In this document: piece after piece, positions 16,681 to 50,832 of the stretch
Layout: the number at the start of each line of letters is the position of its first letter
How positions within the stretch are numbered: position 1 is the first letter of the stretch
Virus record (IMG/VR): IMGVR_UViG_3300045303_000229
Coordinates: 1 to 59,229 of that record
Source: a virus
Lineage: Duplodnaviria > Caudoviricetes
Direction: 5' to 3' (one strand)
DNA length: 59,229 nucleotides
Made by a program: the position numbers and the translations under genes
The notes under the pieces: model-generated
Told to the model about the DNA's origin: nothing
Database searches by the model: none
What the model saw: only the letters and a program-made list of their open reading frames with translations

Positions 16681-17427
16681 TCATCGGTCTCCTTGATGCA
16701 TGCCGCGCCTGGGCACGTCGGACCAGCGAGCCATCATGCAGGTGGAGCATTCGCGTTGGGGGTTGTGCTCGCAGAAGGCCACCGGTGCTGCCGCGGGGAC
16801 AACCACATCCGGCGAGACCGAAGGAGGGGGAGTCCCTGCGTCGGATGCACCCGCGGCAGTTGGTGACGAACTGAACTTGGCGCCATCGACCGCGCTGAAC
16901 ACGCCGCGCCAGACCTCATCACGGGTCGGCGTAGCAACGATCTGGTCCTCGAGCACCCACACGAGTAGGTCGCGAACCGCCTCCTGGATGCCCGCTTCCT
17001 TGCTTTCGCGCGGCCCGGCGACGTTGAGCACGTTGATGTTGGCCTTGTCGAGCCACTCGCGGATGCCATCAGCGACCGCGTTCGGCATCTGCGTGCGCCC
17101 GCCGCGCGGCAACACGACGTGAATGTGAGCCTTGTCCTGCTTCTCGCATTGCTCGATCGTGTAAGCCGTGCCGCCACCCGGCGACTCAGCGAACGAGACG
17201 ATGAGCGTGCCGTCGCTATCCTGGATGTTCAGCCGGGTCCGAATCCCGTAGTTGCTGGACGACGTGCAGCGCATGCGCTCACGGTAGATGTCCGGTATCT
17301 GGCCGTCCTCGGATCGCCAGCCGGCCGGTGCCCATCCGCCAAACGCGAGGTCAAGCGCGATGGCTGCGTCGAGTCCGCCCCGATCGGCTCCAGTTTGTCC
17401 GCCTGACACGATGGTCGTGAGCCTCAT
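16681..17427 (-). CDS. SLOG-superfamily protein (putative Mo-carrier / circularly permuted YpsA family)
   Basis: IVSGGQTGADRGGLDAA, GGWAPAG, RTRLNIQDSDGTL, GGT..T and LNVAGPRES are the signature motifs of this family. Confidence 0.88.
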   Translation of the reverse strand: MRLTTIVSGGQTGADRGGLDAAIALDLAFGGWAPAGWRSEDGQIPDIYRERMRCTSSSNYGIRTRLNIQDSDGTLIVSFAESPGGGTAYTIEQCEKQDKAHIHVVLPRGGRTQMPNAVADGIREWLDKANINVLNVAGPRESKEAGIQEAVRDLLVWVLEDQIVATPTRDEVWRGVFSAVDGAKFSSSPTAAGASDAGTPPPSVSPDVVVPAAAPVAFCEHNPQRECSTCMMARWSDVPRRGMHQGDR

Positions 17428-18009
17428 ACCCCAGGCCACCTAACTCCGGCCGGTCGACCGTCCTGGAACTTGCGCAACTCATCAAGCACGACACGTCGGC
17501 ACACTGGCTCCGGGATCCGGCGCACCCCGTGCTCGTCGCTCGGGTAGTACCGATCCAGGATGATCTCGAGCAACTCGCGCGACTTGTTCACCACTCGCAA
17601 TCCTCCGCATCGAGCGGCATCATGACCTGGTTCCGCTCCTTGACCTTGCTCGCCTCGATCTTGGCGCGGAGTTGCGCGGACCAGTGGGCGGAGACCGCGG
17701 CGCGCTGGGCCGGCGTCCAGCTCGGCCTTGGATGCGTCGTGTATTCGAGCCGCTGGATCTCGTCGCATGTCAGCAGTTCGCGCAGCGTCAGGCCGTCGAT
17801 CACGACGTCCAGCGGGTCGATAGGTTGCGAACCCTCCGGGATCTCCGGTTGGTTCAGCAACTCGCGCGCACGCTCCGCCGTGATCATCCCGATCTGCGCA
17901 GCCTCGAGGCTTGCAATCTTTGCGTTCCGGACCTCGTAGTAGACCGGGTCAAGTCTCCAGTTCAGGACGCCACCGCAGGCGGGGCATGGTGGCATATGGC
18001 ACACGCTGC

Positions 18010-23531: not shown

Positions 23532-24075
23532 AGTTAAGTCCGTACCGATGTCTGACGCGGATGTCAAGCATCTCGGTACCCCGGCAGGGCGGTGAGCGCG
23601 GCGGTCAGGTTGCGGCGCGGTATCGAGCGGCGTGGTGGCGGGTAGGTCGACCACATGGCCACGGTGCCGCGCTGCAATAGGTTCCCCTCAATCTCCTGGT
23701 GGATCTCGTCGAGTCTACGACTTGATGCCTCGAACTGCGCCCTGGTGATGGACCAGGCCTCGTCCGCCACCGGTCGGTCAACGCCAGCTAATATCCGGTA
23801 ACCCTCGTAGAGTTGACTCCGTGTGATGTGGAAATTCAAGGATTTATTAGTCTTCACCCACGGGGCCCATTGCCCGATCGCGCGATCATGCGCGACAAGC
23901 GCCACAGCTAACCCACTGGGACAGTTCCATAACCTCGACCACGACGTTCTCCGTCTCGAGGTCATCCGCACCCACTTCGCCTCGACCTCTGGCATCTCGA
24001 GATTGGCCTCACATTCCCGCCCGCACGCGCGAAAATCAGCGGCCATGCGCAACTGGTCCCAGGTCGCTGACTGGC

Positions 24076-24705
24076 TCACGGGATCAGCATGCAGGTGTAC
24101 CCGCCTGCGTCGTGGCGCTCGCACCAGTACGCCGAGCACCAGGTGCTGTTTGCGAGGTCGATCACGCACAATCCACGAACGAACCTCGGGGTTCCATCCG
24201 CCAGATCCCAATCGACCGTGCACATGTATGTGCCATCTGGCTGGGTCCCGCAGTCCACGGACGACGCCGCCGGCCGTTGCCCTAGCACGAGACCGGCCCG
24301 TCGAGCCGCGTTGCTCGCCGCGTTGAGCGTGGCCTGACTACGCGTCCCATCACCTGGGTGACAGAGCGCATCGGGGTCCGCCAGCGGCTCGCCGCCCGGC
24401 GCGATCGGGTCGGAGATGCATGGGTCGTCTCCACCGCCAGCGACGGCCTCGCCCGGCTGGACTGGGATCAGGATCGAGCAGGTGCACCCCGTTCGTGGGT
24501 TGCAGCAGCAGACCCCGCCGTTGACGATCGCGCAGCACAGGCCGTCTTCGCAGGCAACTAGGTTGGGATCAACTCCTCCGAGGAAATCATCAAGCATCGA
24601 CGCGGCGATCGCAAAGTCCTCCCTCTTGTTCGGGTCATTCTCTCCCTGGGTTGATGGCTGCACACACGAACACACCATCACGAGCAATGTTGCGAATTTT
24701 CTCAT
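24076..24705 (-). CDS. Cys-rich secreted protein / lipoprotein
   Basis: MRKFATLLVMVCSC lipobox-like signal and a CCAIVNGGVCCCNPRTGCTC cluster. Own promoter-like TTGCAC...TATGGT 7 nt before the ATG. Confidence 0.7.
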   Translation of the reverse strand: MRKFATLLVMVCSCVQPSTQGENDPNKREDFAIAASMLDDFLGGVDPNLVACEDGLCCAIVNGGVCCCNPRTGCTCSILIPVQPGEAVAGGGDDPCISDPIAPGGEPLADPDALCHPGDGTRSQATLNAASNAARRAGLVLGQRPAASSVDCGTQPDGTYMCTVDWDLADGTPRFVRGLCVIDLANSTWCSAYWCERHDAGGYTCMLIP

Positions 24706-25818
24706 CGTTGACACCATACGCTTGTCCCATTCTGGTGCAAGACCGCACCGCCAGTACAGTGTAGCAATCCGGATACAGGTTCTGGTCCGACCAGATTGCG
24801 CCTGAGCTTCGCATCCTCGAGGTCATCCTGCGGTCGACCGAGAACCGGGGCGATCAGGTACGAGCCGTCTGGTCTAGCCCTGGTCATGTACCAGCCCGTG
24901 GGTGCGCGCAGATGCTGGCAGTGCACCACGCAGCACCACACCACGAGCATGACGACGAGTAGACGCGGAGTCACTTCCATACCTCACGCCAAGCCTGCTC
25001 GCTCTGCAGCCTAGCGTTGATCACGTCGATGACCCGAGCTAGAGCACTGTTGATCCGGGATGGAGATTCGGGCGCTCTCTCCGAGACCTCCGGAAGCAAC
25101 CGAGCCCGAGCCGCGATCTGAACGCGCTCCCTACGATTCGCCGCGTGGCGTTGACGCTTGATGCGCTTGGCACGATCAGGGTTCTTTGGCTGGCTCGCAG
25201 CGGAATCTTGACCGAAGCGCCAGCACCACTCCTCGTGAGCGCCTGCTCCTTGGCAGCATTTCCTCGTCTCGACATCTACCGGCATCACCGCTTCCTCCCC
25301 AACTCGAGCGCGACGTCGAAGTAGGCGTCGCTCTCGGCGGTCCTGCGAGACATCCCACCATCGAGCTCGCGAATCGCAACGCGCTCCTCCCAGAACTCGA
25401 GCACCTCCTCGTACGGGCGACCGACGTTCCGGGCGATCGCGCGCAGCTTGCCCTCGTTCATCTCCATCCTTCGCGTAGCAGCCCTTCCGCCGCCGCATAA
25501 CAAAGCTGGCGCTCCTCGTCGTCGACGCACCATCCTCTGGGCTCCGGTTGCACGAGCGCGCGCGTCGCGAGCAATCTAGCGGCTATCGTGAAACCAGGGA
25601 CCGACCACACGCCGAACTCCCACGTCGGTTGGCACGCCAGGATCGACAGCAGCTCCATCGCTTGTGCAGCGATCGTCTCGTTCATGGCCAGCTCTCATCG
25701 TCGCAGTCGCATCCGCAACCATCATCGTCTCGGTCCTCTTCTCGGCGAAGCGCGCCATGCCAGACCGCGATAGCAACCATGATCGCGAACGCCCAGCAGA
25801 GGAAGAACTCACTGAGCG

Positions 25819-25992
25819 TCATGTCGTCACCAACGCCAACTGAAACCAGGCGCTCATGCTCAGGTTCCCGTGCTCTGCCAGGGCCTGGACCTTCCGGTAC
25901 TCACCCTCGGTGAGCCAGACCGTGACTCCTCGGGAGCGCTTGGTCTCCGGGTCACTCAGCGGGCGACCGATCCGTGGCTTGCGCTTGACCAT
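25819..25992 (-). CDS. Ribbon-helix-helix (CopG/Arc-like) regulator, 57 aa (not in ORF track)
   Basis: MVKRKPRIGRP...RGVTVWLTEGEYRKVQALAEHGNLSMSAWFQLAL. Confidence 0.7.
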   Translation of the reverse strand: MVKRKPRIGRPLSDPETKRSRGVTVWLTEGEYRKVQALAEHGNLSMSAWFQLALVTT

Positions 25993-25993
25993 C

Positions 25994-26275
25994 TTAGAAA
26001 TCCCGGTTCATCGCGTCGTCCATCGACAGTTTACCCGCCGACACCGCTCGCGCGATCTCATCCTCACCGAGCACCGAAGCAACAGCGCCCGCCGCTGCCG
26101 CCGTACGCTGCGCATCGGTGACGTCGACGCGGCGCGCTGCCAGAGCCCGCGAGCATCCAGCCACGTGCTTGATCCTGGCAGCCTCGACCGTCTTACCTCG
26201 GCCAGTCTGGATGCACTCGAGGCACCGGAACTTGAATCCGTAGAGCGCGTCCGTGGTGACCGAGTAGTTGTCCAT
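25994..26275 (-). CDS. Hypothetical protein with CxxC...HxxxC motif
   Basis: ORF starts 6 nt after a strong -10 element. Confidence 0.7.
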   Translation of the reverse strand: MDNYSVTTDALYGFKFRCLECIQTGRGKTVEAARIKHVAGCSRALAARRVDVTDAQRTAAAAGAVASVLGEDEIARAVSAGKLSMDDAMNRDF

Positions 26276-26281
26276 GTCGTT

Positions 26282-26310
26282 ACCCTAATCTCAAACCTAC
26301 CTGATGTCAA
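26282..26310 (-). promoter_or_regulatory. sigma70 promoter, leaderless
   Basis: TTGACA-17-TAGGGT-6 nt-ATG. Confidence 0.75.
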
Positions 26311-26666
26311 CACCTCGATGCGCGAAAGTCAGTTCACGCCGTCCGCCAGCGGCTCACGCCCTGGGGGTAGGCATCGGCAAGCGTGGCCGGTGGCTAGGCA
26401 GGTAGCCTCGGGTGCGACCTGGCGTGCTGCTGTAGCTCGCGCCAAGCACGGTTTGCCGCGTCCACGGCAAGGTGGAAGGCAACGTCTAGCTCCTCATTGC
26501 ACTTGGCGACACGGTCGCGAGCATCTCTTGAGTTAGGGTCTCCGCGTCTCCCGGGCAGCACTTCGTGCTTCGAACTGCGCTCGGCGGACGCCGTTTCGAC
26601 TGCTGCAATAGCCGCACGGTACGCAGCCACCAAGCGCAGTGTAGTTTTCTCGTCTTCGGTCATGGC

Positions 26667-26948
26667 CTACTCCGCGTCGTGCTTGCAGGTCCAGCAGTCG
26701 GTTGGCTTGGTGTAGCCCTCGACGCTCCCACAACTGCAGCCGGTGCGCTTGTTCTCGTACCGTCGAGCTGACGACCGGTTTGACGCCGCCGAGCTCGCCT
26801 GACCTGGAGCAGACTTGGGAGCGCACCACGTGTGGGTCGCGCATCCCGATCCCCAGAATTCGATCTGCGATCCGACGCTCAGGTTATGCCCGCAGCCAGC
26901 GCACCGACCGGGGTACTTCGCGACCATCCTGCGGGGAGCGGCAGACAT
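26667..26948 (-). CDS. Small double zinc-ribbon protein
   Basis: AKYPGRCAGCG...I...H..C and CSCG...CWTC. Confidence 0.7.
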   Translation of the reverse strand: MSAAPRRMVAKYPGRCAGCGHNLSVGSQIEFWGSGCATHTWCAPKSAPGQASSAASNRSSARRYENKRTGCSCGSVEGYTKPTDCWTCKHDAE

Positions 26949-27130
26949 CAGACCAGCTCCACGGTCGCGAGGCCGTTGGCGTCCACCGTGACGTAGCAGG
27001 CTGCGGTGCCGCGGACACCGCCGTCGAGCTCGTAGTCCTTGCCGCAGACCCGGATGAGCCAGCCGGACATCGTCCCATGGTACTTGCCGGCGGGGAGTTC
27101 GTGGGCGCTGACGATCTTGAAGTTGTTCAT
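26948..27130 (-). CDS. 60-aa hypothetical protein, first gene after a sigma54-type promoter
   Basis: MNNFKIVSAHEL..., coupled to the next ORF. Confidence 0.65.
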   Translation of the reverse strand: MNNFKIVSAHELPAGKYHGTMSGWLIRVCGKDYELDGGVRGTAACYVTVDANGLATVELV

Positions 27131-27143
27131 GGTCCTATGTACT

Positions 27144-27158
27144 GCTTCCCGCGTGCCA
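27144..27158 (-). promoter_or_regulatory. sigma54-type (-24/-12) promoter
   Basis: TGGCACG-CGGG-AA-GC (GG-N10-GC), 13 nt before ATG 27130. Confidence 0.65.
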
Positions 27159-27204
27159 GGTCGTAGACACGCCAACCTGTTACGTGGCTGGTTCCGGATT
27201 GCCT

Positions 27205-27261
27205 GGTCCGGAGTGTGGTGCTGTCGGCACACCCTGGATATGGGGCGCCACACTCCGGACC
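27205..27261. repeat. 17-bp inverted repeat (candidate enhancer / hairpin)
   Basis: ggtccggagtgtggtgc (27205-27221) and gcgccacactccggacc (27245-27261), one mismatch. Confidence 0.85.
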
Positions 27262-27264
27262 GGA

Positions 27265-27369
27265 TGGTGCCTCGGGCTGGGATCGAACCAGCGTCTCGCT
27301 CGACGTCGAGATGAAGCAGCGACGTCATGAACCAAGTGAGCGCGTCCTTCCGGGCTGGACGACCGAGGC
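27265..27369 (-). ncRNA. tRNA-like RNA with a 36-nt expanded anticodon loop
   Basis: GCCTCGG/CCGAGGC acceptor plus ACCA, GTCC/GGAC D stem, CGCTC/GAGCG anticodon stem, GCTGG-TTCGATC-CCAGC T arm. 105 nt in total. Confidence 0.85.
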
Positions 27370-28160
27370 AGAGGCGGCGGCATAGCGCCGCCAGACTTCA
27401 CAGCGAGCGTCCATCCCCCGGCACATAGCCGGCCGTCGTCTCCGGCATCGAGAACCGCATCATCACGCCCGGCTCCGGCTGAAACTCGACCCGCCATCCT
27501 GCGAGGATGTACCTGTCAGCGACCGCAGCCATGCTCTGGACTTGCCAACCGGCCCGCGTGCTCTTCATCTCGAGTATCCCAGCCCGAAGGTTCCGATCGA
27601 TGTGCTCCTCGATGTCCTTCTGTTCGCTCTTGGTCACGACCGTGTCTTGGTACTGTTTCGGTGTAAACATTTGAATTCCCTTGATTACCGGAAGTTGATC
27701 CCGCCGGAGCCCGAGGACCGGATCGGCGGACAAAGAAGCCAGCGCTCAGGCTGGAAGGCGCCCCAGGAGAACCCAGAGCGCAGAGAGGACGACGGCAGCC
27801 CAGATCCCAACGCTGCCCCAGGACGCTCCTCTTGCCCTCCAGCGCATCGGGAGCGCCACATGGCGGTGCTTGGGCGGGGTGGGCGCCTGACGCGCCACAG
27901 GGCGAGATAGGTGCCGAATCGCAGGCCTGTCGGTGAGCGTGAGGCGATGCCGTCGAACGCCGACGGATGGCAGGATGATCATGACTCGACTCCCTCTGCG
28001 TCAACGAGCAACCTGCCCCACCGTGTCTCGTCGAGCACCATGAACCCGTCGGCCGTCTTCACGGCGGACTGGCCTAGGTTCCTGATCAGCCACCTGAATC
28101 CTGAAGAAGTTGCACAGGTGACATGTGTAACGCGCTGAGTCCTGATGCGGGATGCCATGA

Positions 28161-28487
28161 CTACACCTCCACCGAGCGGGCGATCGCGCCGTCGGGGCGC
28201 GTGGTGTCGGTGGCGCGGATACTCTCGAGCGCGTACTCGGTGAATCGAGACTCGGGGATCTCGCAGCGCACCGCGTTGAAGTAGGTCCACTCCTCGACAA
28301 CCGACCCGATGCGCTCCATCGCCCACTCCTCGCCCTCGAGAGCTGCGGTGCATAGGTGGACGAAAGCGAAACTACTGTTGCAGCCGGGGTACCACGACTC
28401 GTCTCTGCCGACGTCGGCGTTGTTGGTCGTGACGTGCTCCATGGCGAAGCTGCGGAGCGACTCGATGGCGGCGTTCGTGTTGGTCAT
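28161..28487 (-). CDS. Hypothetical protein
   Basis: 108 aa behind a leaderless promoter. Confidence 0.7.
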   Translation of the reverse strand: MTNTNAAIESLRSFAMEHVTTNNADVGRDESWYPGCNSSFAFVHLCTAALEGEEWAMERIGSVVEEWTYFNAVRCEIPESRFTEYALESIRATDTTRPDGAIARSVEV

Positions 28488-28493
28488 GCGATA

Positions 28494-28522
28494 ACTCTAC
28501 TCACGAAAGTCGGAGTTGTCAA
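28494..28522 (-). promoter_or_regulatory. sigma70 promoter, leaderless
   Basis: TTGACA-17-TAGAGT-6 nt-ATG. Spacer nearly identical to the 34315-34343 promoter. Confidence 0.78.
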
Positions 28523-28718
28523 CAGGATAATTTAGTGAGCGCATCCTATCCCTCACCGAGGTGCGGATGAATCCCGAGCGCGTCTCACCGGCGCGTGCAG
28601 CTGCACGATCCAGGGCGATCAGTTCGCTCGGGCTCAGGTTCGTCGCTGCGCACAGCGTGCGCGGCTCGCGACCATTCTTTAGCCTGCCTGCTACCGGCAG
28701 GCGAGGTCGCCCGGCCAT
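28497..28718 (-). CDS. Ribbon-helix-helix (CopG-like) regulator
   Basis: GRP N-terminus and TNLSPSELIALDRAAARAGETRSGFIR. Confidence 0.75.
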   Translation of the reverse strand: MAGRPRLPVAGRLKNGREPRTLCAATNLSPSELIALDRAAARAGETRSGFIRTSVRDRMRSLNYPVDNSDFRE

Positions 28719-28865
28719 CTACCGGATCTCGGATGGCAGCAAGATCGCGCCGCTACTCAGCACGAGCATCCATTCGCGGTACTTGCGGACTCCGACGATT
28801 TCTAGGTCGTCACCGCGGTACATCACCTTGCTGCCAACCATCTGGGTAATTTCTCGTTTGGTCAT
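28719..28865 (-). CDS. 48-aa hypothetical protein (not in ORF track)
   Basis: MTKREITQMVGSKVMYRGDDLEIVGV..., abuts the RHH gene and is preceded by TCCGGAGTGT boxes. Confidence 0.55.
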   Translation of the reverse strand: MTKREITQMVGSKVMYRGDDLEIVGVRKYREWMLVLSSGAILLPSEIR

Positions 28866-29232
28866 GCTCTTACCCTGATCCTACTCGTGCGAATCCGGAG
28901 TGTCCGTCCGGAGTGTGGCGGTCGGTATCCGGGGAGTGTATCCAGGTACCTGCGCATCGTCCGGCGCGTGCGTAGCCCATCAGGATCCGGTGGCCTGGCG
29001 GGCTCGCAGGGCTCGATCAGGCGATGGCGCTCGTCCACGAGCCAGCGAACCATGATCGGCTGCATGCTCACCGCGAGCTCATTCGGAGCGCGCCTGGCGA
29101 TTAGCCTCATGGCTGCCAGCCGCACCGGCGTGACGCGAAAGGTCGGATCCTCTCCGCACCCCGGGCAGGGAGACCTGGACCCGAGTCGACCGGTCCATGC
29201 GCAGGCGCAGACCACCGGCTGTAGCTTGGCCT

Positions 29233-29538
29233 TCACTCGTCACCCGGATCGAAGATCTGCGCACGATCGAAGCTGACGATCTCCTTCTGCACGCTCGGCG
29301 GCAGCCGGTAGCGCAAGATCTTGTCCTCGTACTCGAGGAACGCGGTCGACCTAAGGAAGTAGGCAGCGACGACTCCGGGCAGACGCAGTGCTCCATGCGA
29401 GAGCGCGCAGTGCTTGCTGTTCGCCTTCTTCGCGTTGACAACATCGCTTGACGTGACGGCGACGAACGCGCGCGCCTTGGCGTCGACGATCGGAATTCCA
29501 AGGTCTTCGGCGCGATGGTACACGTACGGTTTGCTCAC
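29233..29538 (-). CDS. Hypothetical phage protein
   Basis: GTG start MSKPYVY after a GAAGGAG RBS. Confidence 0.6.
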   Translation of the reverse strand: MSKPYVYHRAEDLGIPIVDAKARAFVAVTSSDVVNAKKANSKHCALSHGALRLPGVVAAYFLRSTAFLEYEDKILRYRLPPSVQKEIVSFDRAQIFDPGDE

Positions 29539-29707
29539 GGTATCTCCTTCAGTTTGTGTAGCGCCCACTCGAGCGCCTTGCGTTCGGCCCACAGGAACGA
29601 GATCCTCTCGGCGGGCCACTGTTTGGCCGGGAGGATCCTGGCACCTTCGGTAACCTCGACGCGCCATGCCAGCATGGCTTCGAGTCGTCGGACCCGCTTC
29701 GCATCGC

Positions 29708-30037
29708 TCACAATCCGAGCTCCTTTCGTGACTCGAGACATGCCATGCCGCCAGGGCGGAACCTGGCGCATACCCCCGGCCTGCTCGCGTAGATCTCGCA
29801 GGAGACCTTGACCCCTGGATCCCCACGAAGAAACCCACAGATCTTGCCGAACTCCTCGGTGAACACGCCCGGAGTCGACATCCTAGCGTCGTCTAAGATC
29901 GTGATCACCTTTAGATGCCTACGATGCCATGGCTTGATGCGCTCGATCTCTCCCGGAGAGACGTCGGCGAATCCGAGATCGTCGTCCATGCCACCGATGC
30001 AGCAGGCGCCGCACGTCTTGCAGTCGAGCGCCGGCAT
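29708..30037 (-). CDS. YkgJ-family CxxCxxCC cysteine-cluster protein
   Basis: DCKTCGACC...C.FL...CEIYASRPGVCARF. Confidence 0.85.
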   Translation of the reverse strand: MPALDCKTCGACCIGGMDDDLGFADVSPGEIERIKPWHRRHLKVITILDDARMSTPGVFTEEFGKICGFLRGDPGVKVSCEIYASRPGVCARFRPGGMACLESRKELGL

Positions 30038-31165
30038 CAGTCATCCTCCGATTCTTGGCCCCACAGCCCGACGTTAAGGCACGCCTCCAACTGATCCACG
30101 TAGAGCCGCGCGCTGAATCCAGCAGCCAGACTCAGCGAGGACATGAACGCCATGACGCGCCACCTTGGCCAGGGCTCGCGGTGCTGGGATTCGATGGCGA
30201 TCATGGATCGCCTCGGAGTCGTTCGACCACCGCTTGAGCGAAGTCCGCCAGCGAGTCTTCCGCTTGCCGCTCGGTCTCGCGCACGTTGCGCACGGCGAGC
30301 TCGCGCTGGATCGCGCTGATCCGCAACTCGAGTGCCCGGAGCGCGAATGGATCATCTTCCGCGTGGTGCCTAGCCTTGACCGCCCACAGATGGTGTAGCA
30401 ACGCCTTGACGGTCAACGTGAACAGGTCGATCTCGTCCCATCTATCACGCGGATCCATCTGGCACCTCCTGCAGGATCTCGCCGAGTCTCGCATGCAGCC
30501 AACGGGCCTCGTCGGTGGTCAGGTTGATGTAGCTGTGCGGGGTGATCCTGTTCGCGTCCAGACGGTCGACGCGCTCGGGCAGGACGGTCTCGTCGTGGAT
30601 CGCGATGCTGTCGTCGAACTGATACCTGGAGATCCGAAGTCGGCGACCGGGCCATGCGACCTGGTCGTCGTCTGGGCGGACGGCGGCATAGCGGGTCACT
30701 TGCGCACCGCCCGCTTGAGCGCGCGCTCGTCGTGGTCTAGCTGGACCAGCAGGGCGTACGGCACGGTCCATTCCCCGCTGGATTCAGCATCGCGCACGGC
30801 CTCGACCGCGTCCAGCCAGTTCTCCACGAGCTCGGCCGGGACCATGGCGGTACCTGGAACGTCGACCACCACGGTGTCCTCGTCATCCTCTGACAGGATG
30901 GAGCGGGCGCCTCTGATCACCGCGAGCGCACGCATCGCTACGCCCTGGGCGATCGCCAGCCTGCGTTCCGCGTCGGCTGCCCGGTGCTCGGCGTCCTCAA
31001 GCGCGGTCAGCAGATCGTCCACGGAGCAACGTCCGACGCTCGCATCCGGTGCCGCGGGTGGAGCGTGTGACAGGCCCAGCATCTTGCCGTCGGCGTAGTA
31101 GAGCGCGGTCTCGGTGCGCGGTGAGTCGGGCACGTCATGGAACAGGTGCGGGATGAGAGATTGCG

Positions 31166-31894
31166 TCATGACTCCTCCATGAAGAACTGGATCTCGTCTC
31201 CGATTAGATGCGGATGCAGGTCCACAACGACCGGATCGTCTACCATGGCGAGTACTTTCGCTGCCTCCATCTCCCAGCAAGGCACCCCTTCCTCCCAGCC
31301 ATCGGAATCCGGACCGAGCGCTACGATCGCGCGGTCGATCGCCTTGCGCAGAGCGGCGTCCCAGGCGGCGTCCCAGGCGGCGTCCCTGGCGGCGTCCCAG
31401 GCGGCGTCCCAGGCGGCGTCCCAGGCGGCGTCCCTGGCGGCGTCCCTGGCGGCGTCCCTGGCGGCGTCCCTGGCGGCGTCCCAGGCGGCGTCCCTGGCGG
31501 CGTCCCAGGCGGCGTCCCTGGCGGCGTCCCAGGCGGCGTCCCTGGCGGCGGCCCTGGCGGCGTCCCAGGTCGCCAACTCTGCCGATCGCTCGCTCAAAGG
31601 CAGGGCATAGATCCTGCGCAAGTCCTCGATAAGGCGCGAGTGCTCGGCGCAGTCCTCGGGTCGTCCTGCGAGATGCGAGACCAATGCGGCCGAGTCGATC
31701 GCGAAGGTCCGAGCCGCGGACTCCGAGCGATACCACAGCGCCCGGCACAGCACCCACAGCCGGTCATCCAGCGAGACTGAGTCGTCAGCCGCGACCTCGC
31801 GCGGAGTCAGCCCGGACCGTCCTCTAAAATGCGATGCGATGCTCTGATCATCCCAGCACGCGTTCCATTCCTTGAGCAACTTTGGCGTTATCAC
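31166..31894 (-). CDS. Phage protein with (AA[W/R]D)n repeat tract
   Basis: GTG start, N-terminal LKEWNAC...DDRLWV...ARTFA.D.A domain followed by ~18 tetrapeptide repeats. Confidence 0.75.
31353..31568. repeat. 12-bp coding tandem repeat (ggcggcgtccc[a/t])
   Basis: About 18 units, differing mostly at one base (W vs R codon). Confidence 0.95.
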
Positions 31895-32264
31895 TTGGAT
31901 TCCTTCCGGTTGAACTGATCTGCGATGTGCCGACGAACCGACTCGCAGAACTTGTCGTTTCGCGCCTCCCACCGAAGGCCGATGGAGCGCAGGTTGTTGC
32001 GAAGCTCGGCGCTGGCGTCGAGCGCGAACTCAGCCGCTCCTCCCGCGTGATGCCACTCGAGGATCTGCTCCGTGGTGAGCGAGTCGGCGGTGTGAGGGCA
32101 GGCGTAGCTTCCATCGGGATCTCCGATGTGCTCGACCCTAAGGCATCCGCACACCCTGCAGGTTCCCTCGGTATTCAGCGGAGTCCACACGCGACGCGCC
32201 CTGGCTCCACTCGCAGCCGAGAACGCTGCGGCGATGATCGCGGATCCGATGGCCAGGGTTCCGA

Positions 32265-32435
32265 TCATGACGCAACCGCCATCGTCGTGATGTCAGCGAT
32301 CGACGCCTCAGTCATCGATTCTCTGGAGATGAAGTTCGCGATCGCGACCACGGCCCCCCCCATCTCCTGCTCCGGATAGCCGGAGCCGTAGCCGGAGCCG
32401 TAGCCGTAGCCGTAGCCTCTAGCGAGGGCGCTCAC
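32265..32435 (-). CDS. 56-aa Gly-Tyr repeat microprotein (not in ORF track)
   Basis: GTG start overlapping the upstream stop, MSALARGYGYGYGSGYGSGYPEQ... Confidence 0.5.
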   Translation of the reverse strand: MSALARGYGYGYGSGYGSGYPEQEMGGAVVAIANFISRESMTEASIADITTMAVAS

Positions 32436-32704
32436 TTACCGGCCCTCAGCTTGCCCCAGACATCTTGGTTGCATTCGATCTGCCCACAGCACGCCAGGAC
32501 GTGCACGCGGACCACTCCGTAGTGATCGAGCACGGTATCGGCCGTGGGTCCGCTCAGGGCGATTTCTCCAAGGCCGCGCGACGTACCCCATCGGCGCACG
32601 TTCTGACAGTCTCGGATCACGATGTGATCGCCCTCGCGGGACACGCGCCTCACATAGATCCAGCCGCGCTCCGCGATGATGATCTGATAGTCGTCGTTGT
32701 TCAT
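32432..32704 (-). CDS. DUF6948-like phage protein
   Basis: II.A.RGW.Y...I...VRRWGT..GL.EIA..GP motif, a family typically adjacent to GxG repeats. Confidence 0.7.
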   Translation of the reverse strand: MNNDDYQIIIAERGWIYVRRVSREGDHIVIRDCQNVRRWGTSRGLGEIALSGPTADTVLDHYGVVRVHVLACCGQIECNQDVWGKLRAGK

Positions 32705-33001
32705 TTGGCCCTCGAGCGCTCGATGCGCATGCCGACGTAGGTGAAGTTCAGGGCGACCAGAATCAGGGTGATCACGTGGTAGGTCATGGCTTCCTCGTCA
32801 GTGCCCGCAGCCGAGACAGTTCGATCTCGTCGATGCGCGGGGTCAGGGTTCTCGGGATGTTGATCTCTTCGATCTCCTGCGCGAACTCCGTCAGGTCGAT
32901 CAGGACGTCGTCAGGGTTGAGCGATGGGTCGACCTCGACCGAAAACCGCATTGGAGCCATGTCCGGTGTGCCCTCGTTGGCCCAGCCCTTGATTTCGGTT
33001 T

Positions 33002-33649
33002 TCACCACTTCCATCCCTTCGGCTTCGGGCAATACTGCAGCCACACGTCCGCAGCCCGATACACCCGGAGGAACGAGGTCATCACGTGCACCACCTCGAT
33101 CGCTTCCTCGGCTGGCTGCAAGACGTGGTTTCGCGTGGGCCCCTTCGTGGCAAGGTCGCCAACTGATGTCAGGTCGGAGTTTCTCCGCTCAATGCGCCGA
33201 GCTCCGATCTTGTGCCACCAATCCCCACGATACGGAACTAGCCACGCGCAGTACGGAACCCCACGGCCATACCAACCACCGCGCATTCTGACGAGATACA
33301 GGCCGGGTTCCATATCGATCTCCTGGGGGCAATGTAGATCAGCATCAGCATCAGCATCAGCATCAGCATCAGCATCAGCATCAGCATCAGCAGCAGCAGC
33401 ATCAGCAGCAGCAGCATCAGCAGCAGCATCAGCATCAGCATCAGCATCAGCAGCAGCAGCATCAGCATCAGCAGCATCAGCATCAGCATCAGCATCAGCA
33501 GCATCAGCAGCATCAGCAATCCACACAAACGTGATCGGGATCCCGCGCTCCTCGTGCCAGTCCTTGATCACGGATCGAAACTCCGGGTCGGACAGATGGT
33601 CGGACATCCCGACGGTGGGATCGACCTCGGTCATCGTCGACTCCTGCAC
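33002..33649 (-). CDS. Protein with Ala/Asp low-complexity tract fused to a DUF6948-like C-terminal domain
   Basis: About 60-aa ADAD tract. C-terminal ARRIERR...VGDLATKGP resembles the neighbouring DUF6948-like ORF. Confidence 0.6.
   Translation of the reverse strand: MQESTMTEVDPTVGMSDHLSDPEFRSVIKDWHEERGIPITFVWIADAADAADADADADAADADAAAADADADADAAADAAAADAAAADADADADADADADADADLHCPQEIDMEPGLYLVRMRGGWYGRGVPYCAWLVPYRGDWWHKIGARRIERRNSDLTSVGDLATKGPTRNHVLQPAEEAIEVVHVMTSFLRVYRAADVWLQYCPKPKGWKW
33338..33519. repeat. (AGC/ATC)n trinucleotide mosaic repeat
   Basis: About 180 bp composed only of GCT/GAT codons on the minus strand. Confidence 0.95.
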
Positions 33650-34314
33650 CCGCGCATGAACGCGTCGGCGATGTCACGTGCCGCGAACTGGGGCCAGAAC
33701 CACGCGCAGTAGGGGACGACGAGCGCGAGGAAGGCGAGGCGGCGGATCACTTGGCGCCTGCCTTCGCGCGGGACTCGTAGCCCTCAACGAGGATCATGAT
33801 CGCCCTGCACGCTGACTGCGAGATTTCGCCGCGCATGTCACGCGACGCGCGCGACAGGAACCACTTGATGTCGTCGACCTGTTGCTCGGTGAGCAACGGA
33901 CTGGTCTCTTCCTTCATGGGATCTCCTTCAGTTCCGTCCCGGTAAGCCGGAACATCTCGAGTTGGTCTGCACAGCCCTGGAGCGCGCTACTGCGCTCCTC
34001 CTCGGTTAGGGGCTCGAACCACGCGCCACGATCGAACCCGAGCGCGGCGTACGTGAGGTAGAGCAGCGCCATGTCGTCGGTGGCGACAGCATGGGCCTGC
34101 AGGCGCAGGATGTCGGCCTCGGAGATCACGTCGCCACCATCGCGTTGATCAGGTCGGCGCATTTCGCGAGCGAGTTACACCACGGCTGGTTCCAGCTCTG
34201 ATTCACGAAGTCGAGCCACACGTGGAAGATGCACCCTACCTGCTCGACTCGGATTCCGCGATGCTTGTAGATCCTGGAGGTGTACTCGCCGGTCTTGAGC
34301 TTGGTCATGCCATT

Positions 34315-34343
34315 ACCCTAATCGCGAAAGTCGGCGTTGTCAA
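34315..34343 (-). promoter_or_regulatory. sigma70 promoter, leaderless, for 34126-34308
   Basis: TTGACA-17-TAGGGT-6 nt-ATG. Confidence 0.78.
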
Positions 34344-34667
34344 CATGAGAATCACCTCCCTCTCGCAGGTCGGCGTCGGTAGCCAGCCAACCCCGCACGA
34401 ACGCGTCCCGGATCTCCGGGATCGCGTAGGCGCTCGGGCAGCGCAACTCCCAGGCCTCGCACAGTTGTCCCGAGTAGCGCGCAAACTGGCCGGCCATGAG
34501 CGCGTAGGCTGCGATGGCGCGATTGTTTGCCTCGGCAAGTTCGGCTCGCCAACTCGCCGTATAGTGCTCACTGAAAAGTGATCCGAACCGGTGGTAGTGC
34601 AGCGCCTGCACGAGGTTGCGGGTTGCGTCGCGGATGTGGCGGTCGATCACCCACTGGGGTTGCGTGG

Positions 34668-35183
34668 TCATGACTTCCTCATCGCCTCAGCGCACTCTAT
34701 ACCGACCGACGACACGCCGCCCTGGATGATCATCGACGGAACCCATCCGGAATTCACGAACGCCGTAGCCTGTGCACGCGTGTAGCCACCGCGGCCGCGC
34801 TTACGGTCCCAGTCATCGCCACCTTGAACTAGGTAGTCGATCAACTCCTCCTTGGTCGCGAACGGAGGCGACACTGGCGTTCCCTCGCTGACCGTTTCCC
34901 AGACCTGTACCCATGTCGCGTCCTCGTCACGCCACGTCTGGTATTGCTTCGGATCGATGGGCATACCTTCATCGCGAAGCCACTCGGCCAACGGGTTCAT
35001 CCCAGGCTCGGCGTAGCACTCGCGCTCGATGTCGGTCAGATCCCCAGAACGGATCCGATCGAACTCGGCCAGCCACTCGCGAAACTTGTCCGCGAAGTTT
35101 CCTCGGTACATCGCCTGGAGGTGGCCGCGATCGTCCAGCGGATGTTTCCAGTTCCGCGGCACCATTCTAATTTCTCTTCCCAT
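34668..35183 (-). CDS. Conserved phage hypothetical protein
   Basis: MGREIRMVP..W.HP and QVWETVSEGTPVSPPF.T.EEL..YL motifs. Confidence 0.75.
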   Translation of the reverse strand: MGREIRMVPRNWKHPLDDRGHLQAMYRGNFADKFREWLAEFDRIRSGDLTDIERECYAEPGMNPLAEWLRDEGMPIDPKQYQTWRDEDATWVQVWETVSEGTPVSPPFATKEELIDYLVQGGDDWDRKRGRGGYTRAQATAFVNSGWVPSMIIQGGVSSVGIECAEAMRKS

Positions 35184-35196
35184 GCCTCCCATCATT

Positions 35197-35211
35197 GCTC
35201 ACCTCGTGCCA
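35197..35211 (-). promoter_or_regulatory. sigma54-type promoter (leftward)
   Basis: TGGCACG-AGGT-GA-GC, 13 nt before ATG 35183. Confidence 0.65.
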
Positions 35212-35262
35212 TCTCGCCGACCTCGCAACCTGTTGACCGCGCTCGGGTCACCTCGCCGGATC

Positions 35263-35305
35263 CCGTCCGGAGTGTGGTGCTGTTGCGTCACCTGTCGCCG
35301 GACGG
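35263..35305. promoter_or_regulatory. Candidate upstream activator (enhancer) box
   Basis: gtccggagtgtggtgctgt (35265-35283) is identical to 27206-27224. Inverted ccgtccgg/ccggacgg. Confidence 0.55.
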
Positions 35306-35374
35306 TCACAGTTTTCTGATGGTCGGTACGGTGGCGGCAGAGTACCGGCGCATGGTTGCGAGACCTGTTGACGA

Positions 35375-35389
35375 TGGCACGGTCGTGGC
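35375..35389 (+). promoter_or_regulatory. sigma54-type promoter (rightward)
   Basis: TGGCACG-GTCG-TG-GC, 13 nt before ATG 35403. Confidence 0.65.
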
Positions 35390-35402
35390 ATGATGGGATG
35401 GC

Positions 35403-35651
35403 ATGGAAGAGACCATAATCGCGAACATCATCCTGAACAGCCTCCGCAAGGAGTGGCTGCTCAAACACGACAACGAGAGCATCCAGAACGCCGACTGGAA
35501 CAGGATCGCCATGACGATCGCCACCGACTCAGCCAAGGCGATCGTAGACGGCCTCTCCATCTCTATAGATCCGGATGCCGGACATGACCCGAACTGTCCT
35601 CTAGAGCACTGCGGTCCGTGCATGCATCGTCCGCTGGACGGTGCAACGTGA
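35403..35651 (+). CDS. Hypothetical protein with C-terminal H..C...HC..C motif
   Basis: First ORF of a short plus-strand operon. Confidence 0.65.
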   Translation: MEETIIANIILNSLRKEWLLKHDNESIQNADWNRIAMTIATDSAKAIVDGLSISIDPDAGHDPNCPLEHCGPCMHRPLDGAT

Positions 35652-36856: not shown

Positions 36857-37183
36857 CTAGACCAGCTTCACGCTGATCGCCGCTAGGGCTTCGCTGACGG
36901 TCCTGACGACCACCGGCGGCTTTCCCCGCCACTCGCGCCACCACTTGACCTGTGCCGGTGTCATGTCGTCGTGCTCTCCACCAGCCCCTCGGTGCTTTCC
37001 CTGCTGGACTGCGCCGCGCGCGGTGAGCGGCAGCTTCACCTCGACCAAGTGAAGCTCGCCTCGCCAACTGACCAGCAAATCTGGGCACCCTGACTCGTTC
37101 AGACGCTGCACGGCCGCGCCGGCCTGGACGAGAGCGTCCACGATGGCCTTCTCGTTCGTATCTCTGCGTCGAGCGTAGGTCAT
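36857..37183 (-). CDS. VRR-NUC / PD-(D/E)xK endonuclease (resolvase-like)
   Basis: RRDTNEKAIVDAL...GCPDLLV...LVEVK...TPAQ.KW. Confidence 0.85.
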   Translation of the reverse strand: MTYARRRDTNEKAIVDALVQAGAAVQRLNESGCPDLLVSWRGELHLVEVKLPLTARGAVQQGKHRGAGGEHDDMTPAQVKWWREWRGKPPVVVRTVSEALAAISVKLV

Positions 37184-37830
37184 ACGGAAACTCGCACGTA
37201 AGTATACGCCTGCTTACCGCTCGCCCAGAACTTCCCAGGAATCTTCACGCGATTCCAACCGTGCGACTCCATCCAGCGAAGTGCATCTCCGGGTGGGCAA
37301 ACGCGCGCCTCCCAGCGTTGTATCCACGTGAATCCATTACGAACTAGATCGCGCTTTCCATGCGTGCCGTTGCTATACGAAGAGCAGCGCGCGCCATCCG
37401 AATTCTCGTTCACTGGCCGCTTGCTTCGGGTCGTCTTGGTCCACCCGGAGCATTCATAAACGAATCCGTTGTGCCCCTCTCCTTCGTCGGAATAGGTAAC
37501 CAACACCGGCCACCTGGTCCTATCTATCGCATGATTCATCTGTCGACGTAGAGGCTTACTGATGTGCTTCAGCCTCCGTCCTGACTTATCAACTGCGACC
37601 ATCCTAGAAAGAGAAAGCACACCCTGTGGGGCCTCTTGGCATACTGCTCTAGCCGCCCCCGGCGGCGGCGGCTGCCACGCGTAGGCCGCGATTGGCGCGC
37701 CATCCTCGAACACCGCGAAGCAATAGGTCATGCTCGCAGATAACGACTTGTACCCATGGTACTGCTCGAATAGTTCTACGACCTCATCGCGTCTTGCGAC
37801 GCGAAGATCGTATCCGGGCGGAAGCCTCAT
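37180..37830 (-). CDS. mom: Mom-family (GNAT-fold) DNA adenine-modification protein
   Basis: E.YHGY, LSLSRMV and LVTYSD.GEGHNGFVYE.SGW match the Mu Mom/XF1762 pattern. Lower GC than flanks. Confidence 0.75.
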   Translation of the reverse strand: MRLPPGYDLRVARRDEVVELFEQYHGYKSLSASMTYCFAVFEDGAPIAAYAWQPPPPGAARAVCQEAPQGVLSLSRMVAVDKSGRRLKHISKPLRRQMNHAIDRTRWPVLVTYSDEGEGHNGFVYECSGWTKTTRSKRPVNENSDGARCSSYSNGTHGKRDLVRNGFTWIQRWEARVCPPGDALRWMESHGWNRVKIPGKFWASGKQAYTYVRVSV

Positions 37831-42583: not shown

Positions 42584-42584
<1 letters not shown>

Positions 42585-43231
42585 CAGCGCTTGCCCCGCT
42601 CCATCGCCTGGTCTGCGATCCATCGCTGCACGTCATCCGCGACCTGCAGATACGTCGAGCTCGGCGACATGTCGATCTCCTGGCCCGGCTGGTACGCGGC
42701 CCAGATTCGATCGCGCAGCACCTTCGGAAGCCGGCGCCAGTGTTCCAGGCATCCCCACATCGCGGGCGGCACCGTCTTGGTGCACCCAGTCCAGTGGCAG
42801 TGATGTGCCCGGGTCGGCGCCTTGCGGGACTCGCGCGCCACGTGCCGGCGCTTGGCCGACAGGCTCGTTACGGGCTCATGTTTGGCGGCGACCTTCGCGA
42901 GGCGCTCCTGCGCTGATGGCGGTGCAGGCTCTCCAGGGTCCCGAGTCGAGATCATCAGCATGAAATTGCGCAGTGTCTCTCTGTCACCGGTGTTCTCGCA
43001 GGTTCGTAGCAGCGCCACGTTCTCGGCGCTCAGTTCGGCGGTTTCGCCGCGTAGCCATGCCACCGAGCACCGGTAGAGCGCTGCCAGCGCACGGAGGTCG
43101 TCATCGGTAGGAGGCGCCCCTGCGCCGATTTCCATCGCATGGAGCGGACCATTCGCCCATCCGAGGAGCTTTGCGGCTTGAGCGAGCGACAGTCCTGCGC
43201 CTTCGCGCGTCGACTTGAGCCTGCTGATCAC
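42584..43231 (-). CDS. XRE HTH domain fused to a Cys/His zinc-binding domain
   Basis: RLKSTREGAGLSLAQAAKLLG...E.G and C-terminal HHCHWTGC......MWGC..HW..LP..LR. Confidence 0.75.
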
Positions 43232-48355: not shown

Positions 48356-49096
48356 TTATGCTGAGTCAGGAGGCCCAGCAAGCGCGCGCAAAGCGTCGAG
48401 CCCGCCAGGCAGGATCACGGCGTTGATGTCGACGCGGCCGATCCCCGGGGCCTCGCGCGGGTAGCCAGCTGGTCCGGTCGGCGCACCTTCCGCGCTGACG
48501 TATTGCCACAGCATGGCGTGCTCCAGGTCGGTGCCGGTTCGGGCAAGGAACTGTGCAGTGCTCTCGCCCTTGCCGTGGAGCTCGCTGGCGTAGAGCGCTA
48601 CGGCCGAGCGACATCCGCCCATCTCTTCGCGCTTACACCCGAGCGCTCGCAGGAGTTCCCCGCCATAGATGGTGGGGCTCCTGCCCGACAGCTTTGTGTA
48701 CCGGTCGCAGAACTTCCTAGTGATACCAGTTACCTGGTTCTTGGTTGGGTTGGCGACGCGCTGCCCGCCGCGCTCAACGTCAGCCATCGCCGGAAGCGTA
48801 CCCGAGCGCTCTCCACCAATCTTCTCGAGGTAGGTCCAGAACCGCTCGGCCTGGACCTCGCCAGGTTGATGGAAGGTCAGGTAGTGATAGAACCCGTCGA
48901 ACAGATCGACGCCGTAGCGCTCGCTGGCTAGCAGGTGATCGCGCTGCTTATTGGCCCATGCCGAGTACTCGTAGTCTAGCCCTTGAGTGAGCTTGAAAAT
49001 GGCCCCACAGAACGGATAGCCAGCACCGATGTACGCGTCCCAGTTGACCGGGTGATCCTTCGGGTAGATATCGATCAGGAGCGGGTCAAGAGACAT
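48356..49096 (-). CDS. Endolysin, glycoside hydrolase family 25 (muramidase)
   Basis: LIDI, FKLTQG, GFYHY, DVE catalytic motif, LWQY and VDIN. Confidence 0.88.
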   Translation of the reverse strand: MSLDPLLIDIYPKDHPVNWDAYIGAGYPFCGAIFKLTQGLDYEYSAWANKQRDHLLASERYGVDLFDGFYHYLTFHQPGEVQAERFWTYLEKIGGERSGTLPAMADVERGGQRVANPTKNQVTGITRKFCDRYTKLSGRSPTIYGGELLRALGCKREEMGGCRSAVALYASELHGKGESTAQFLARTGTDLEHAMLWQYVSAEGAPTGPAGYPREAPGIGRVDINAVILPGGLDALRALAGPPDSA

Positions 49097-49886
49097 GGCG
49101 ACCGTGCTCCTCGATGCCGCATTGGATCCGGTCGATCATGATCGCATTTGCCCGGTCCCGTGGCACGCCGAACGAGAGCAACTCGTCGAACTGAGCACGA
49201 AGCTGGTCGATCTCCGACATGGCGGGTCCCAGGCATGGATCGCACATGAAGACCTCGCCCTCGATCTTGCCGGTAAACTCGACCACGTGGTCGGTCTCGG
49301 CGCCGCACTTCAGGCACGGCGCGCTCACCGGCCGGTCCTCATCTCCAGGATCTCGGCTTCGAGAACGGAGATGCGAGATTCGAGACCGAGCGCAGTCCTG
49401 CGCGCTACGTTGCCCTCCGCCTCGAGCACCACAATCCGAGCAGCGTCGACGGCGCGGGTGCGTTCGAGGTCGGCGATGCGGTATTCGAAGTCTCGTAGGG
49501 TCACGCGAACGAGGTCACCATCCGGCTCAGGAGAAGCCGGCACCCAATCGTGACCCCGTCTGAGCTGACAGTACAGGCAGCCCATCTCGAGGGACCCATG
49601 CTCGCACCGGCTGGCTGGATCGACGTTCATTCGCTCACCGTTGGGATCGGGTCTCTGGTCGCCAGCTCTGCAGCCGCTGCGGCATCATCCGCCGCCTCAC
49701 CCGAGGTCAGCTTCGCGAGACGATCCATCACGTTCTCGTGGGTGTCGCCGCTCGCCAAGGTTGCCAGGCCGGCGCGCAGGACCGCGACCACCTCGGCCGC
49801 GGGGAGACTCAGCGAGCCGACGACCTGTTGCAGAATCCCGATGAACGCGTCGTACTTCTCGACCTTCTCGGCCAATTCTTGGATGT

Positions 49887-50147
49887 TCATTTCGCCACCA
49901 TCGCCCGAACAGCGGCATCCTTGGCCTCGAGCAGCTTGCGCAACGCTACGGAGCGCTCCGGGTTTCTCGGTAGCGGGAATTGAATCGATTGCCCGGTCAG
50001 CGAGATACTATCCATGCCAACGATGAGACCGGCGAGATCGCAGAACGGCTTGCTGACCGCCTGTAGGTTCGCCGGCAGATGCTCATAGGCGAAGAACTGC
50101 ATGATGTGTTCGATTGGTGTCGGTGTGGAATCCAGGTCGTTGTTCAT
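49887..50147 (-). CDS. Conserved small phage helical-hairpin protein (possible Acb2/Tad1-like sponge)
   Basis: FFAYEHLP..LQ.VSKPF...LP.NPERSVALRKLLEAKDAAVRA. Confidence 0.6.
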   Translation of the reverse strand: MNNDLDSTPTPIEHIMQFFAYEHLPANLQAVSKPFCDLAGLIVGMDSISLTGQSIQFPLPRNPERSVALRKLLEAKDAAVRAMVAK

Positions 50148-50732: not shown

Positions 50733-50832
50733 CGGATCTCCTGGTTAGAATCGCGCCACGGCCATGCCGAGCGCATGCAGCAACCACAGTACCCCAAACA
50801 GAACAAGCCCTAGGAAGAGAAAACGCAGCGGA

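Follow-up and report, generated by a model that had tools for sequence, protein, structure and literature searches.

The virus genome held in record IMGVR_UViG_3300045303_000229 (59,229 bp, linear, judged 100% complete, about 63% G+C), which we analysed over its whole length and call the window, carries three copies of a control cassette placed directly in front of genes. From upstream to downstream, the cassette is made up of a box array, GGTTG(C/G)G, TGGCACG-N4-RAGCA, 12 bases ending in C, and the ATG. It was also found in five other viral contigs that have few genes in common with the window, and because nine sites in six such genomes keep it, sequence comparison identifies it as a real, conserved and functional element under selection. 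We infer that the sites are promoters. Our preferred reading, a nearly even prospect, is that of a host-read, sigma54-type, enhancer-dependent cassette for the early genes of a small lineage of podovirus-like soil phages.

Core sites in the window

The three sites, designated B1 to B3, and the elements upstream of them are as follows:

27143-27158, minus strand: putative B1 promoter core TGGCACGCGGGAAGCA; TGGCACG-N6-GC at 27144-27158; ATG at 27130-27128, 60-aa gene
35196-35211, minus strand: putative B2 promoter core TGGCACGAGGTGAGCA; TGGCACG-N6-GC at 35197-35211; ATG at 35183
35375-35390, plus strand: putative B3 promoter core TGGCACGGTCGTGGCA; TGGCACG-N6-GC at 35375-35389; ATG at 35403, 82-aa gene
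27173-27181, minus strand: AACAGGTTG element upstream of B1; its GGTTG is invariant in the three window sites
35226-35234, minus strand: AACAGGTTG element upstream of B2
35354-35362, plus strand: GGTTGCGAG element upstream of B3

An initial annotation of this genome had described these sites, each 13 nt from its ATG and each preceded by GGTTG, and both statements are borne out. The gap between GC and ATG is exactly 13 nt at B1, B2 and B3, the ATGs being in frame with open reading frames (ORFs) of high third-position GC, and the first G of GGTTG lies 19, 19 and 21 nt upstream of the T of TGGCACG. At B2, the ATG in question is the third in frame and not the first (35195). It opens a leftward operon that begins with a 171/175-aa gene, the second gene being syntenic with the leftward B site of the related genome G806. 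No relative of the 175-aa gene was found in viral contigs, and metagenome contigs yielded a single 1.3-kb fragment of it without the promoter end. When the three window sites were aligned, no sigma70-spaced -35/-10 pair was conserved across them.

Exact matches to TGGCACG-N6-GC number five in the whole window against 1.53 expected, a count reached by 2 of 100 shuffles. Every window position was also scored against TGGCACGNNNNTTGCW with GG and GC fixed. B3 is the best match in the genome (1 mismatch), and B1 and B2 (2 mismatches each) are with it among the five best, together with two other sites at 2 mismatches (36354, minus strand; 38496, plus strand). The genome-wide sigma54 scan that the initial annotation had proposed as a check comes out in favour of the three sites by location but not by number: matches at up to 2 mismatches (5) equal the Markov expectation (5.25). 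B1 to B3 are all intergenic and in the correct orientation and register; sigma54-like matches are non-random in placement, not in number. The equality of observed and expected counts, and the fact that B2 and B3 form an inverted duplication 194 nt apart, would suit an origin of the likeness by chance or by recent local duplication without function. Such an origin is scarcely credible, however, and we regard it as refuted, given that nine sites in six genomes have the same invariant bases and the same ATG distance before non-homologous genes.

Boxes and their arrays

A 19-mer box is identical at 27206 and 35265, and no other copy occurs in the window at up to 3 mismatches. The two copies start 47 and 53 nt upstream of TGGCACG, which agrees with the roughly 50 bp reported initially. 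The accompanying description of a box with two copies holds for the 19-mer but not for its 10-mer core TCCGGAGTGT, for which further copies had been missed: five exact ones are present (27207 plus, 27259 minus, 28894 plus, 28907 plus and 35266 plus). All five fall in three regulatory gaps, in arrays that mix direct and inverted copies:

27204-27262, no strand assigned: box array 1; on the minus strand, TCCGGAGTGT at 27259-27250, a degenerate direct repeat TCCAGGGTGT at 27238-27229 and an inverted copy at 27216-27207
28894-28939, plus strand: box array 2; direct repeats TCCGGAGTGT, TCCGGAGTGT and TCCGGGGAGTGT, overlapping the -35 position of the leftward promoter A4
35265-35283, plus strand: box copy 3 (19-mer), between the divergent B2 and B3

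Each 19-mer had been said to be part of an inverted repeat. This is true of the copy at 27206, which supplies one arm of an inverted repeat with strong hairpin potential (the components of box array 1 together make up a hairpin-capable inverted repeat), but the inverted repeat at the other copy is weak (17 nt, 76% complementary). Box array 1 is kept in a related fragment, G804, with one uncompensated stem change and intact 10-mers, which favours protein binding over an RNA hairpin.

Boxes were also seen away from any B site in two related genomes. In G805, 27 nt separate the end of a box at 2054-2063 (minus strand) from a TGnTATAAT extended -10 downstream of it, and in G806 a box hairpin at 55614-55667 is followed, after about 60 nt, by a TTGACC hexamer.

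Conservation of the cassette in other viral contigs

Checking other phages for the core and the box, as had been suggested, showed both to be present in five other viral contigs. The terminase and portal relatives (G001, a 37-kb viral contig with 65% portal identity, L001, L013/G002, L014/G003, G156 and G578) have structural genes only in common with the window and lack the cassette. A scan of viral contigs with a 14-mer of the box gave at least 119 matches, nearly all of them chance singles, one being G804, a 33.6-kb fragment 76-85% identical to positions 24074-27663 of the window. Two scans for the geometry of the cassette yielded G805 and G806, both of them complete, with about 58 kb and 68-70% G+C, and then a 15-kb contig of L191; two other genomes matched in the first of these scans, G807 and G808, are unrelated to the window. 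The pattern TGGCACG-N4-RAGCAGTR-N8-CATG has six matches in the viral collection, in four contigs that all carry the cassette, whereas a control pattern with the wrong ATG distance (N10 instead of N12) has six matches that are all unrelated; such scans of the collection may leave out the window's own record.

Gene content outside the cassette has diverged widely. The G806 endolysin is 71% identical to that of the window, and the RecE/T-like pair of G805 is 52-56% identical. Common to the window, G805 and G806 are structural proteins, a nuclease-like protein, a 318-aa protein encoded next to DnaB (28% identity), a 92-aa membrane protein and an XRE-family protein, and no others.

The nine sites align without gaps. 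Counted from the A of ATG, every one of them has TGGCACG at -28 to -22, GCA at -15 to -13 and CATG from -1 to +3, and 13 nt separate GC from ATG at all nine. A 19-nt core, TGGCACGCGGGAAGCAGTA, is identical in the window (B1), G804, G805 and G806 and differs by one base in L191, although the first downstream gene is homologous only between the window and G804. In the comparison with G804, the block GACCTGGCACGCGGGAAGCAGTA is identical at 23 of 23 positions in a region of 78% overall identity, and substitutions cluster just outside it; with G805, a 21-nt core ranks with the longest of the DNA words listed as shared. The central spacers are wholly different at B2, B3 and the G805 site G805a, indicating that recognition is bipartite. 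All nine sites are accompanied by boxes, which occur in both orientations at distances of -58/-64 and -101 to -134 from the T of TGGCACG. G806 repeats the layout of the window, with B sites at 1164 (minus strand) and 1349 (plus strand) and a box hairpin between them (1242-1294), so that in both genomes the divergent pair of putative promoters shares its boxes.

Resemblance to sigma54 promoters

A published sigma54 consensus reads mrNrYTGGCACG-N4-TTGCWNNw (PMC2725144). The TGGCACG found at nine of nine sites is exactly the -24 half of this consensus, with Y as the preceding base in five; the GG-N10-GC spacing is kept at all nine sites in the six genomes, and the base after GC is always A. A chance match to all seven -24 bases plus a correctly spaced GC is very unlikely. 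Enhancers are usually situated 80-150 bp upstream (PMC4987338), and the boxes would count as enhancers by position only. At the level of sequence, the case for sigma54 is strong. The sigma54 regulon postulated in the initial annotation is supported as far as GG-N10-GC, the perfect -24 element and the enhancer-positioned repeats are concerned, while its -12 half deviates from the consensus, reading RAGCA or TGGCA and never TTGCW. A literature search confined to listings and abstracts, with few subscription journals, turned up no account of sigma54 promoters forming a regulon in a phage.

That the phage has no activator of its own had also been proposed, and this was confirmed. A six-frame search of the window for the sigma54 activator domain PF00158 returned 0 candidates, the control being found in 14 of 14 genomes, and none of the six cassette-bearing genomes matched this profile. 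Six-frame searches of the window likewise gave no match to Sigma54_DBD (PF04552), PF04542 (Sigma70_r2) or PF08281 (Sigma70_r4_2). Since the phages encode neither factor nor activator, both would be host proteins. Host RNA polymerase with a sigma54-type factor would contact the GG and GC doublets, which are separated by one helical turn, and would wait at the core as a closed complex until an ATPase activator on the box array opened it via DNA looping. The same box-binding protein may occlude or modulate sigma70-type promoters where the box overlaps their -35. The fixed distance and the invariant C-A at -1/+1 place the predicted transcription start at the ATG or no more than 2 nt away from it; transcripts that start at the ATG would be leaderless mRNAs.

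If sigma54 reads the sites, early genes would be tied to host sigma54 and to a signal-sensing ATPase, and the phage would be sensing host physiology at the first step of infection. If sigma54 is not the reader, the cassette would mark an as yet unrecognised transcription specificity factor. Either way, it constitutes a defined object (a 19-nt core, a 10-nt box, nine natural variants in six genomes and a predicted start at the ATG) and a sequence tag for further members of a phage lineage without a cultured relative.

A second promoter family

Another set of sites in the window, A1 to A4, appears to consist of sigma70-type promoters placed for transcripts to start at the ATG:

26282-26312, minus strand: putative A1 promoter, TGTTGACA-N17-TAGGGT-N6-ATG; kept in G804 with a diverged spacer
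28494-28524, minus strand: putative A2 promoter, TGTTGACA-N17-TAGAGT-N6-ATG
34315-34345, minus strand: putative A3 promoter, TGTTGACA-N17-TAGGGT-N6-ATG
28863-28877, minus strand: putative A4 promoter, CAGGGT-N6-ATG; -10 at 28877-28872, ATG at 28865, two tandem boxes in place of a -35

A1 to A3 have all the parts of a leaderless promoter of the sigma70 type (a TTGACA-like -35, 16-18 nt, TANNNT and an ATG 5-8 nt on), whereas the B sites do not. Starts of the form TAGAAT/TAGGGT/TATGAT-N6-7-ATG were also observed in relatives, as two more putative promoters in G804 and two -10/leaderless starts in G001. A TANNNT hexamer some 12 bp ahead of the start codon has been described as the hallmark of leaderless genes, which account for more than 20% of genes in Actinobacteria and Deinococcus-Thermus (PMC3160421). 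The phage would accordingly appear to use two classes of promoter, each at a constant distance from the ATG and each with C-A at -1/+1.

Points against sigma54 and alternative readings

Several observations weigh against sigma54 as the reader. Besides the -12 half already mentioned, the base before GC is A at eight sites, G at one and T at none, whereas most known sigma54 promoters have T at this position; two bases before GC, T occurs at a single site. CGG after TGGCACG and GTA after GCA are kept at six to seven of the nine sites, and more bases are conserved than sigma54 is known to need. The sites would imply leaderless starts, and a start at the A of ATG would put GC at -15/-14, 2 nt beyond its textbook position. 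Sigma70-type promoters in the window (28.9 kb) and in G805 also have the box, at about -40/-50, an arrangement that suits an ordinary activator or repressor. One protein could bind it from the phage side, the sole recognisable DNA-binding protein common to the window, G805 and G806 (39% and 33% identity over 102 aa):

42584-43231, minus strand: XRE-family helix-turn-helix (HTH) protein of 215 aa; HTH_31, Pfam E=2.7e-9

No RNA run is listed among the sequencing runs that contain window sequence.

The host clues include further points of this kind. Two 42-kb relatives (portal identity 41-46%) were binned in two metagenome-assembled genomes (MAGs) of Actinomycetota that lack rpoN, one of these MAGs being G003. 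Sigma54_DBD was detected in 9 of 301 sampled genomes of that phylum, and above the cut-off in 1 of 151 genomes of the class of the G003 MAG. The nearest bacterial clusters of the endolysin are mostly Actinomycetota, a weak lead, and together the A-family leaderless promoters and the MAG-binned relatives lean towards the same phylum. The nearest binned relative, L013/G002, is a 2.4-kb contig in a 'Deltaproteobacteria' MAG with Sigma54_DBD (rpoN). For the myxobacterial starvation or development signal that had been suggested initially we found no support, this contig being the one link to that part of the tree. The capsid type, SU10, takes its name from a coliphage. WhiB was looked for in 5 genomes and not found, which is either uninformative or counts slightly against an actinophage; no clue to the host came from palindrome avoidance, and a 13-mer of the box was not enriched in the five MAGs holding relatives. 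A search of 351 genomes of the G003 phylum with the B-core pattern returned 12 matches, none with the ATG geometry or the box, and the reversed control was commoner. As a whole, the host evidence is mixed.

A serious alternative, which we nonetheless hold to be somewhat doubtful, is that the core belongs to a lineage-specific phage promoter class that merely resembles that of sigma54. A phage-encoded specificity factor would then read the core, either a novel sigma-like protein or a virion-delivered RNA polymerase among the ORFans and large virion proteins, in an actinobacterial-type host without sigma54. The boxes would be operators of a phage regulator, for which the XRE HTH protein is the simplest candidate; its occurrence in all three genomes fits this role, and it would also control the sigma70-type promoters that boxes overlap, as their placement at -40/-50 might suggest. 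Long invariant promoters are typical of phage-encoded polymerases, and the 19-nt core is identical in four genomes and one base off at two more sites despite differing downstream genes. This near-invariance has to be set against the wholly different spacers at B2, B3 and G805a, which indicate bipartite recognition at one-turn spacing, a property for which sigma54 is, to our knowledge, the only known reader. Similarly, the A before GC at eight of the nine sites points to a specificity unlike TTGCW, but a coincidental match to the seven-base -24 element plus the spaced GC remains very improbable under a phage factor. Sigma54 is rare in Actinomycetota, the phylum to which the TAGRGT leaderless promoters and the MAG-binned relatives point, and the lack of WhiB in 5 genomes bears slightly, if at all, in the opposite direction. 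The cassette was detected in only four contigs of the viral collection, the window's own record aside, as might be expected of a factor confined to one lineage. Streptomyces phage phiC31 offers a precedent, with a compact repeated early promoter and a gene annotated as a sigma factor, yet searches here for a sigma factor, an RNA polymerase or a homologue of phiC31 gp12 came back empty: gp12 had no match at E<=10, and PF00940 (RNA_pol) gave none in the window in a weak search whose control matched in no genome. PDB sequence searches with the three largest virion proteins also returned nothing usable.

It is unlikely, though conceivable, that the sites represent a -24/-12-type class in a host lineage without sigma54 (e.g. 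soil Actinomycetota), read by an unrecognised sigma54-like factor and giving leaderless mRNAs. Such a factor would amount to a second, independent route to one-turn bipartite promoters.

TGGCACG-N4-RAGCA could instead be an operator, formed by TGGCA/nnGCA direct half-sites one turn apart, which we consider improbable. The block would overlie weak sigma70-type promoters or leaderless mRNA starts, and the boxes would serve either as a second operator or as origin iterons to which the 318-aa protein binds. Box arrays are indeed iteron-like, with direct repeats 13 and 21 nt apart, and the 318-aa protein is common to G805 and G806 (at the 28% identity given above); the distances between box and core are, however, stereotyped in six genomes, which argues for a promoter-linked role. 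As for underlying promoters, B3 has TTGACG (-35-like) and CATGAT (-10-like) hexamers, and AATGAT (B2) and CATGAT (B3) lie 7-8 nt before the ATG. Against this, no -10 hexamer is in a fixed register across the nine sites, unlike the block; the candidate -10 of B1 is changed in G804 while the block is unchanged; and a workably spaced -35 is missing from both B1 and B2. Some support for an operator also comes from G807, an unrelated phage with a dense two-orientation array of TGGCAYG-N4-(T/A)TGCA within 200 nt, one member being a perfect palindrome, TGGCACGCCGCGTGCCA; this array resembles protein-binding sites rather than promoters.

G807 (L175-L177) is itself a 58-kb phage with terminal repeats, in which region 49884-52474 contains three perfect TGGCACG-N4-TTGCA sites and in which no PF00158 was found. 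These sites may be either canonical sigma54 promoters in a phage or protein-binding sites.

Comparison with known systems

The cassette resembles sigma54 promoters with bacterial enhancer-binding protein sites, such as glnAp2/NtrC and Pu/XylR, in GG-N10-GC, the perfect TGGCACG, GCW and the lack of a sigma70 pair, and also in having repeats in both orientations about 85-160 nt upstream of the presumed start and one array for two divergent promoters. Unlike those systems, it has RAGCA instead of TTGCW, additional conserved CGG and GTA, and a probable leaderless start, which would put GC at -15/-14. The carrier phages, moreover, have no sigma54 or activator genes and possibly a host of a mostly sigma54-less phylum, and the box is also located at the -35 of sigma70-type promoters.

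With the leaderless promoters of high-GC Gram-positive bacteria the B sites share the fixed ATG distance, C-A at -1/+1 and the lack of a workably spaced Shine-Dalgarno sequence, and they coexist with A1 to A4, which look like true sigma70-type examples. Unlike these, the B sites have no in-register TANNNT or -35, and their conserved block extends from -28 to -10.

phiC31 is similar in that a short conserved sequence precedes many early genes (GGGTTGCCGAC(T/G)(C/T)CCTTAC upstream of 9 of the 22 genes examined), with a separate repeated operator and a GGTTGC motif. Its early promoter, however, is GGGTTGCCGACTCCCTTAC, without TGGCAC or GG-N10-GC, its gene annotated as a sigma factor has no homologue here, and its genes have Shine-Dalgarno leaders. 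A supposed likeness of phiC31 early promoters to sigma54 promoters was discarded, being unsupported by the phiC31 sequence. Promoters of T7-type polymerases are comparable in the length of the core (about 19-23 nt), in its near-invariance within a lineage and in the fixed start site; they differ in that no polymerase gene was found here, the bases adjacent to the start are variable and three sites have a wholly different central spacer.

Genome and other features

A soil metagenome is the sole sequencing run with window sequence and may be its source. In a collection of isolated phages (50,697 records), the 9-kb region, the first 8 kb, the portal and the endolysin had no DNA or protein match, and DnaB had only matches of up to 31% identity, from many hosts. 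Virion genes comprise terminase, portal and an SU10-type capsid protein, and very large virion proteins (1402, 894 and 795 aa) are encoded. Further genes encode a pectate-lyase-like tail protein, DnaB, a RecE/RecT-like pair and many ORFans. No integrase was found in a six-frame search of the window.

The GH25 endolysin gene adjoins genes for membrane proteins and a lipoprotein. This lysis cassette (48356-51393, minus strand) encodes the endolysin, small proteins with membrane spans, a 120-aa lipoprotein with the signal MRSLIIAIAILSGC and a protein of 186 aa that has a coiled coil and a single membrane span; it showed no typical spanin pair. Other products on the minus strand are a cpYpsA SLOG-family protein (16681-17439, E=4.7e-45), a Mom-family protein (37180-37830, E=1.5e-9) and a small PD-(D/E)xK/VRR-NUC-like protein (36857-37183) that is 52-55% identical in G805 and G806.

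Beside box array 1 lies a tRNA-like gene (27262-27366, minus strand). Its acceptor stem is 7 bp long, a D arm and a T arm (GCTGG-TTCGATC-CCAGC) are present, the end reads ACCA, and a 27-nt insert with a 7-bp hairpin of its own sits in the anticodon arm. ARAGORN reported it as tRNA-Val(tac) in intron mode only; default ARAGORN and Rfam gave nothing for this stretch. Together with the flanking hairpin, it has a fold z-score of -3.8. We rejected the idea that it is the core of a phage attachment site (attP), because no integrase was found, its 25-nt arm is not matched exactly in any of 185,579 species genomes, and the cloverleaf, though it carries an insert, is complete. The gene is kept in G804 with a compensatory T-stem change, another insert hairpin and one acceptor mismatch.

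Three repeat tracts were also observed. An in-frame tandem tract of about 20 units of 12 nt (31293-31628) lies within a 268-aa gene, and an in-frame CAGCAT/CAGCAG tract (33302-33547) within a 96-aa ORF (33238-33528) with a second-position G+C of just 0.24. At the left end of the record there is a perfect 41-nt tandem duplication (17-57 and 58-98), which may be a feature of assembly or of a terminal repeat.

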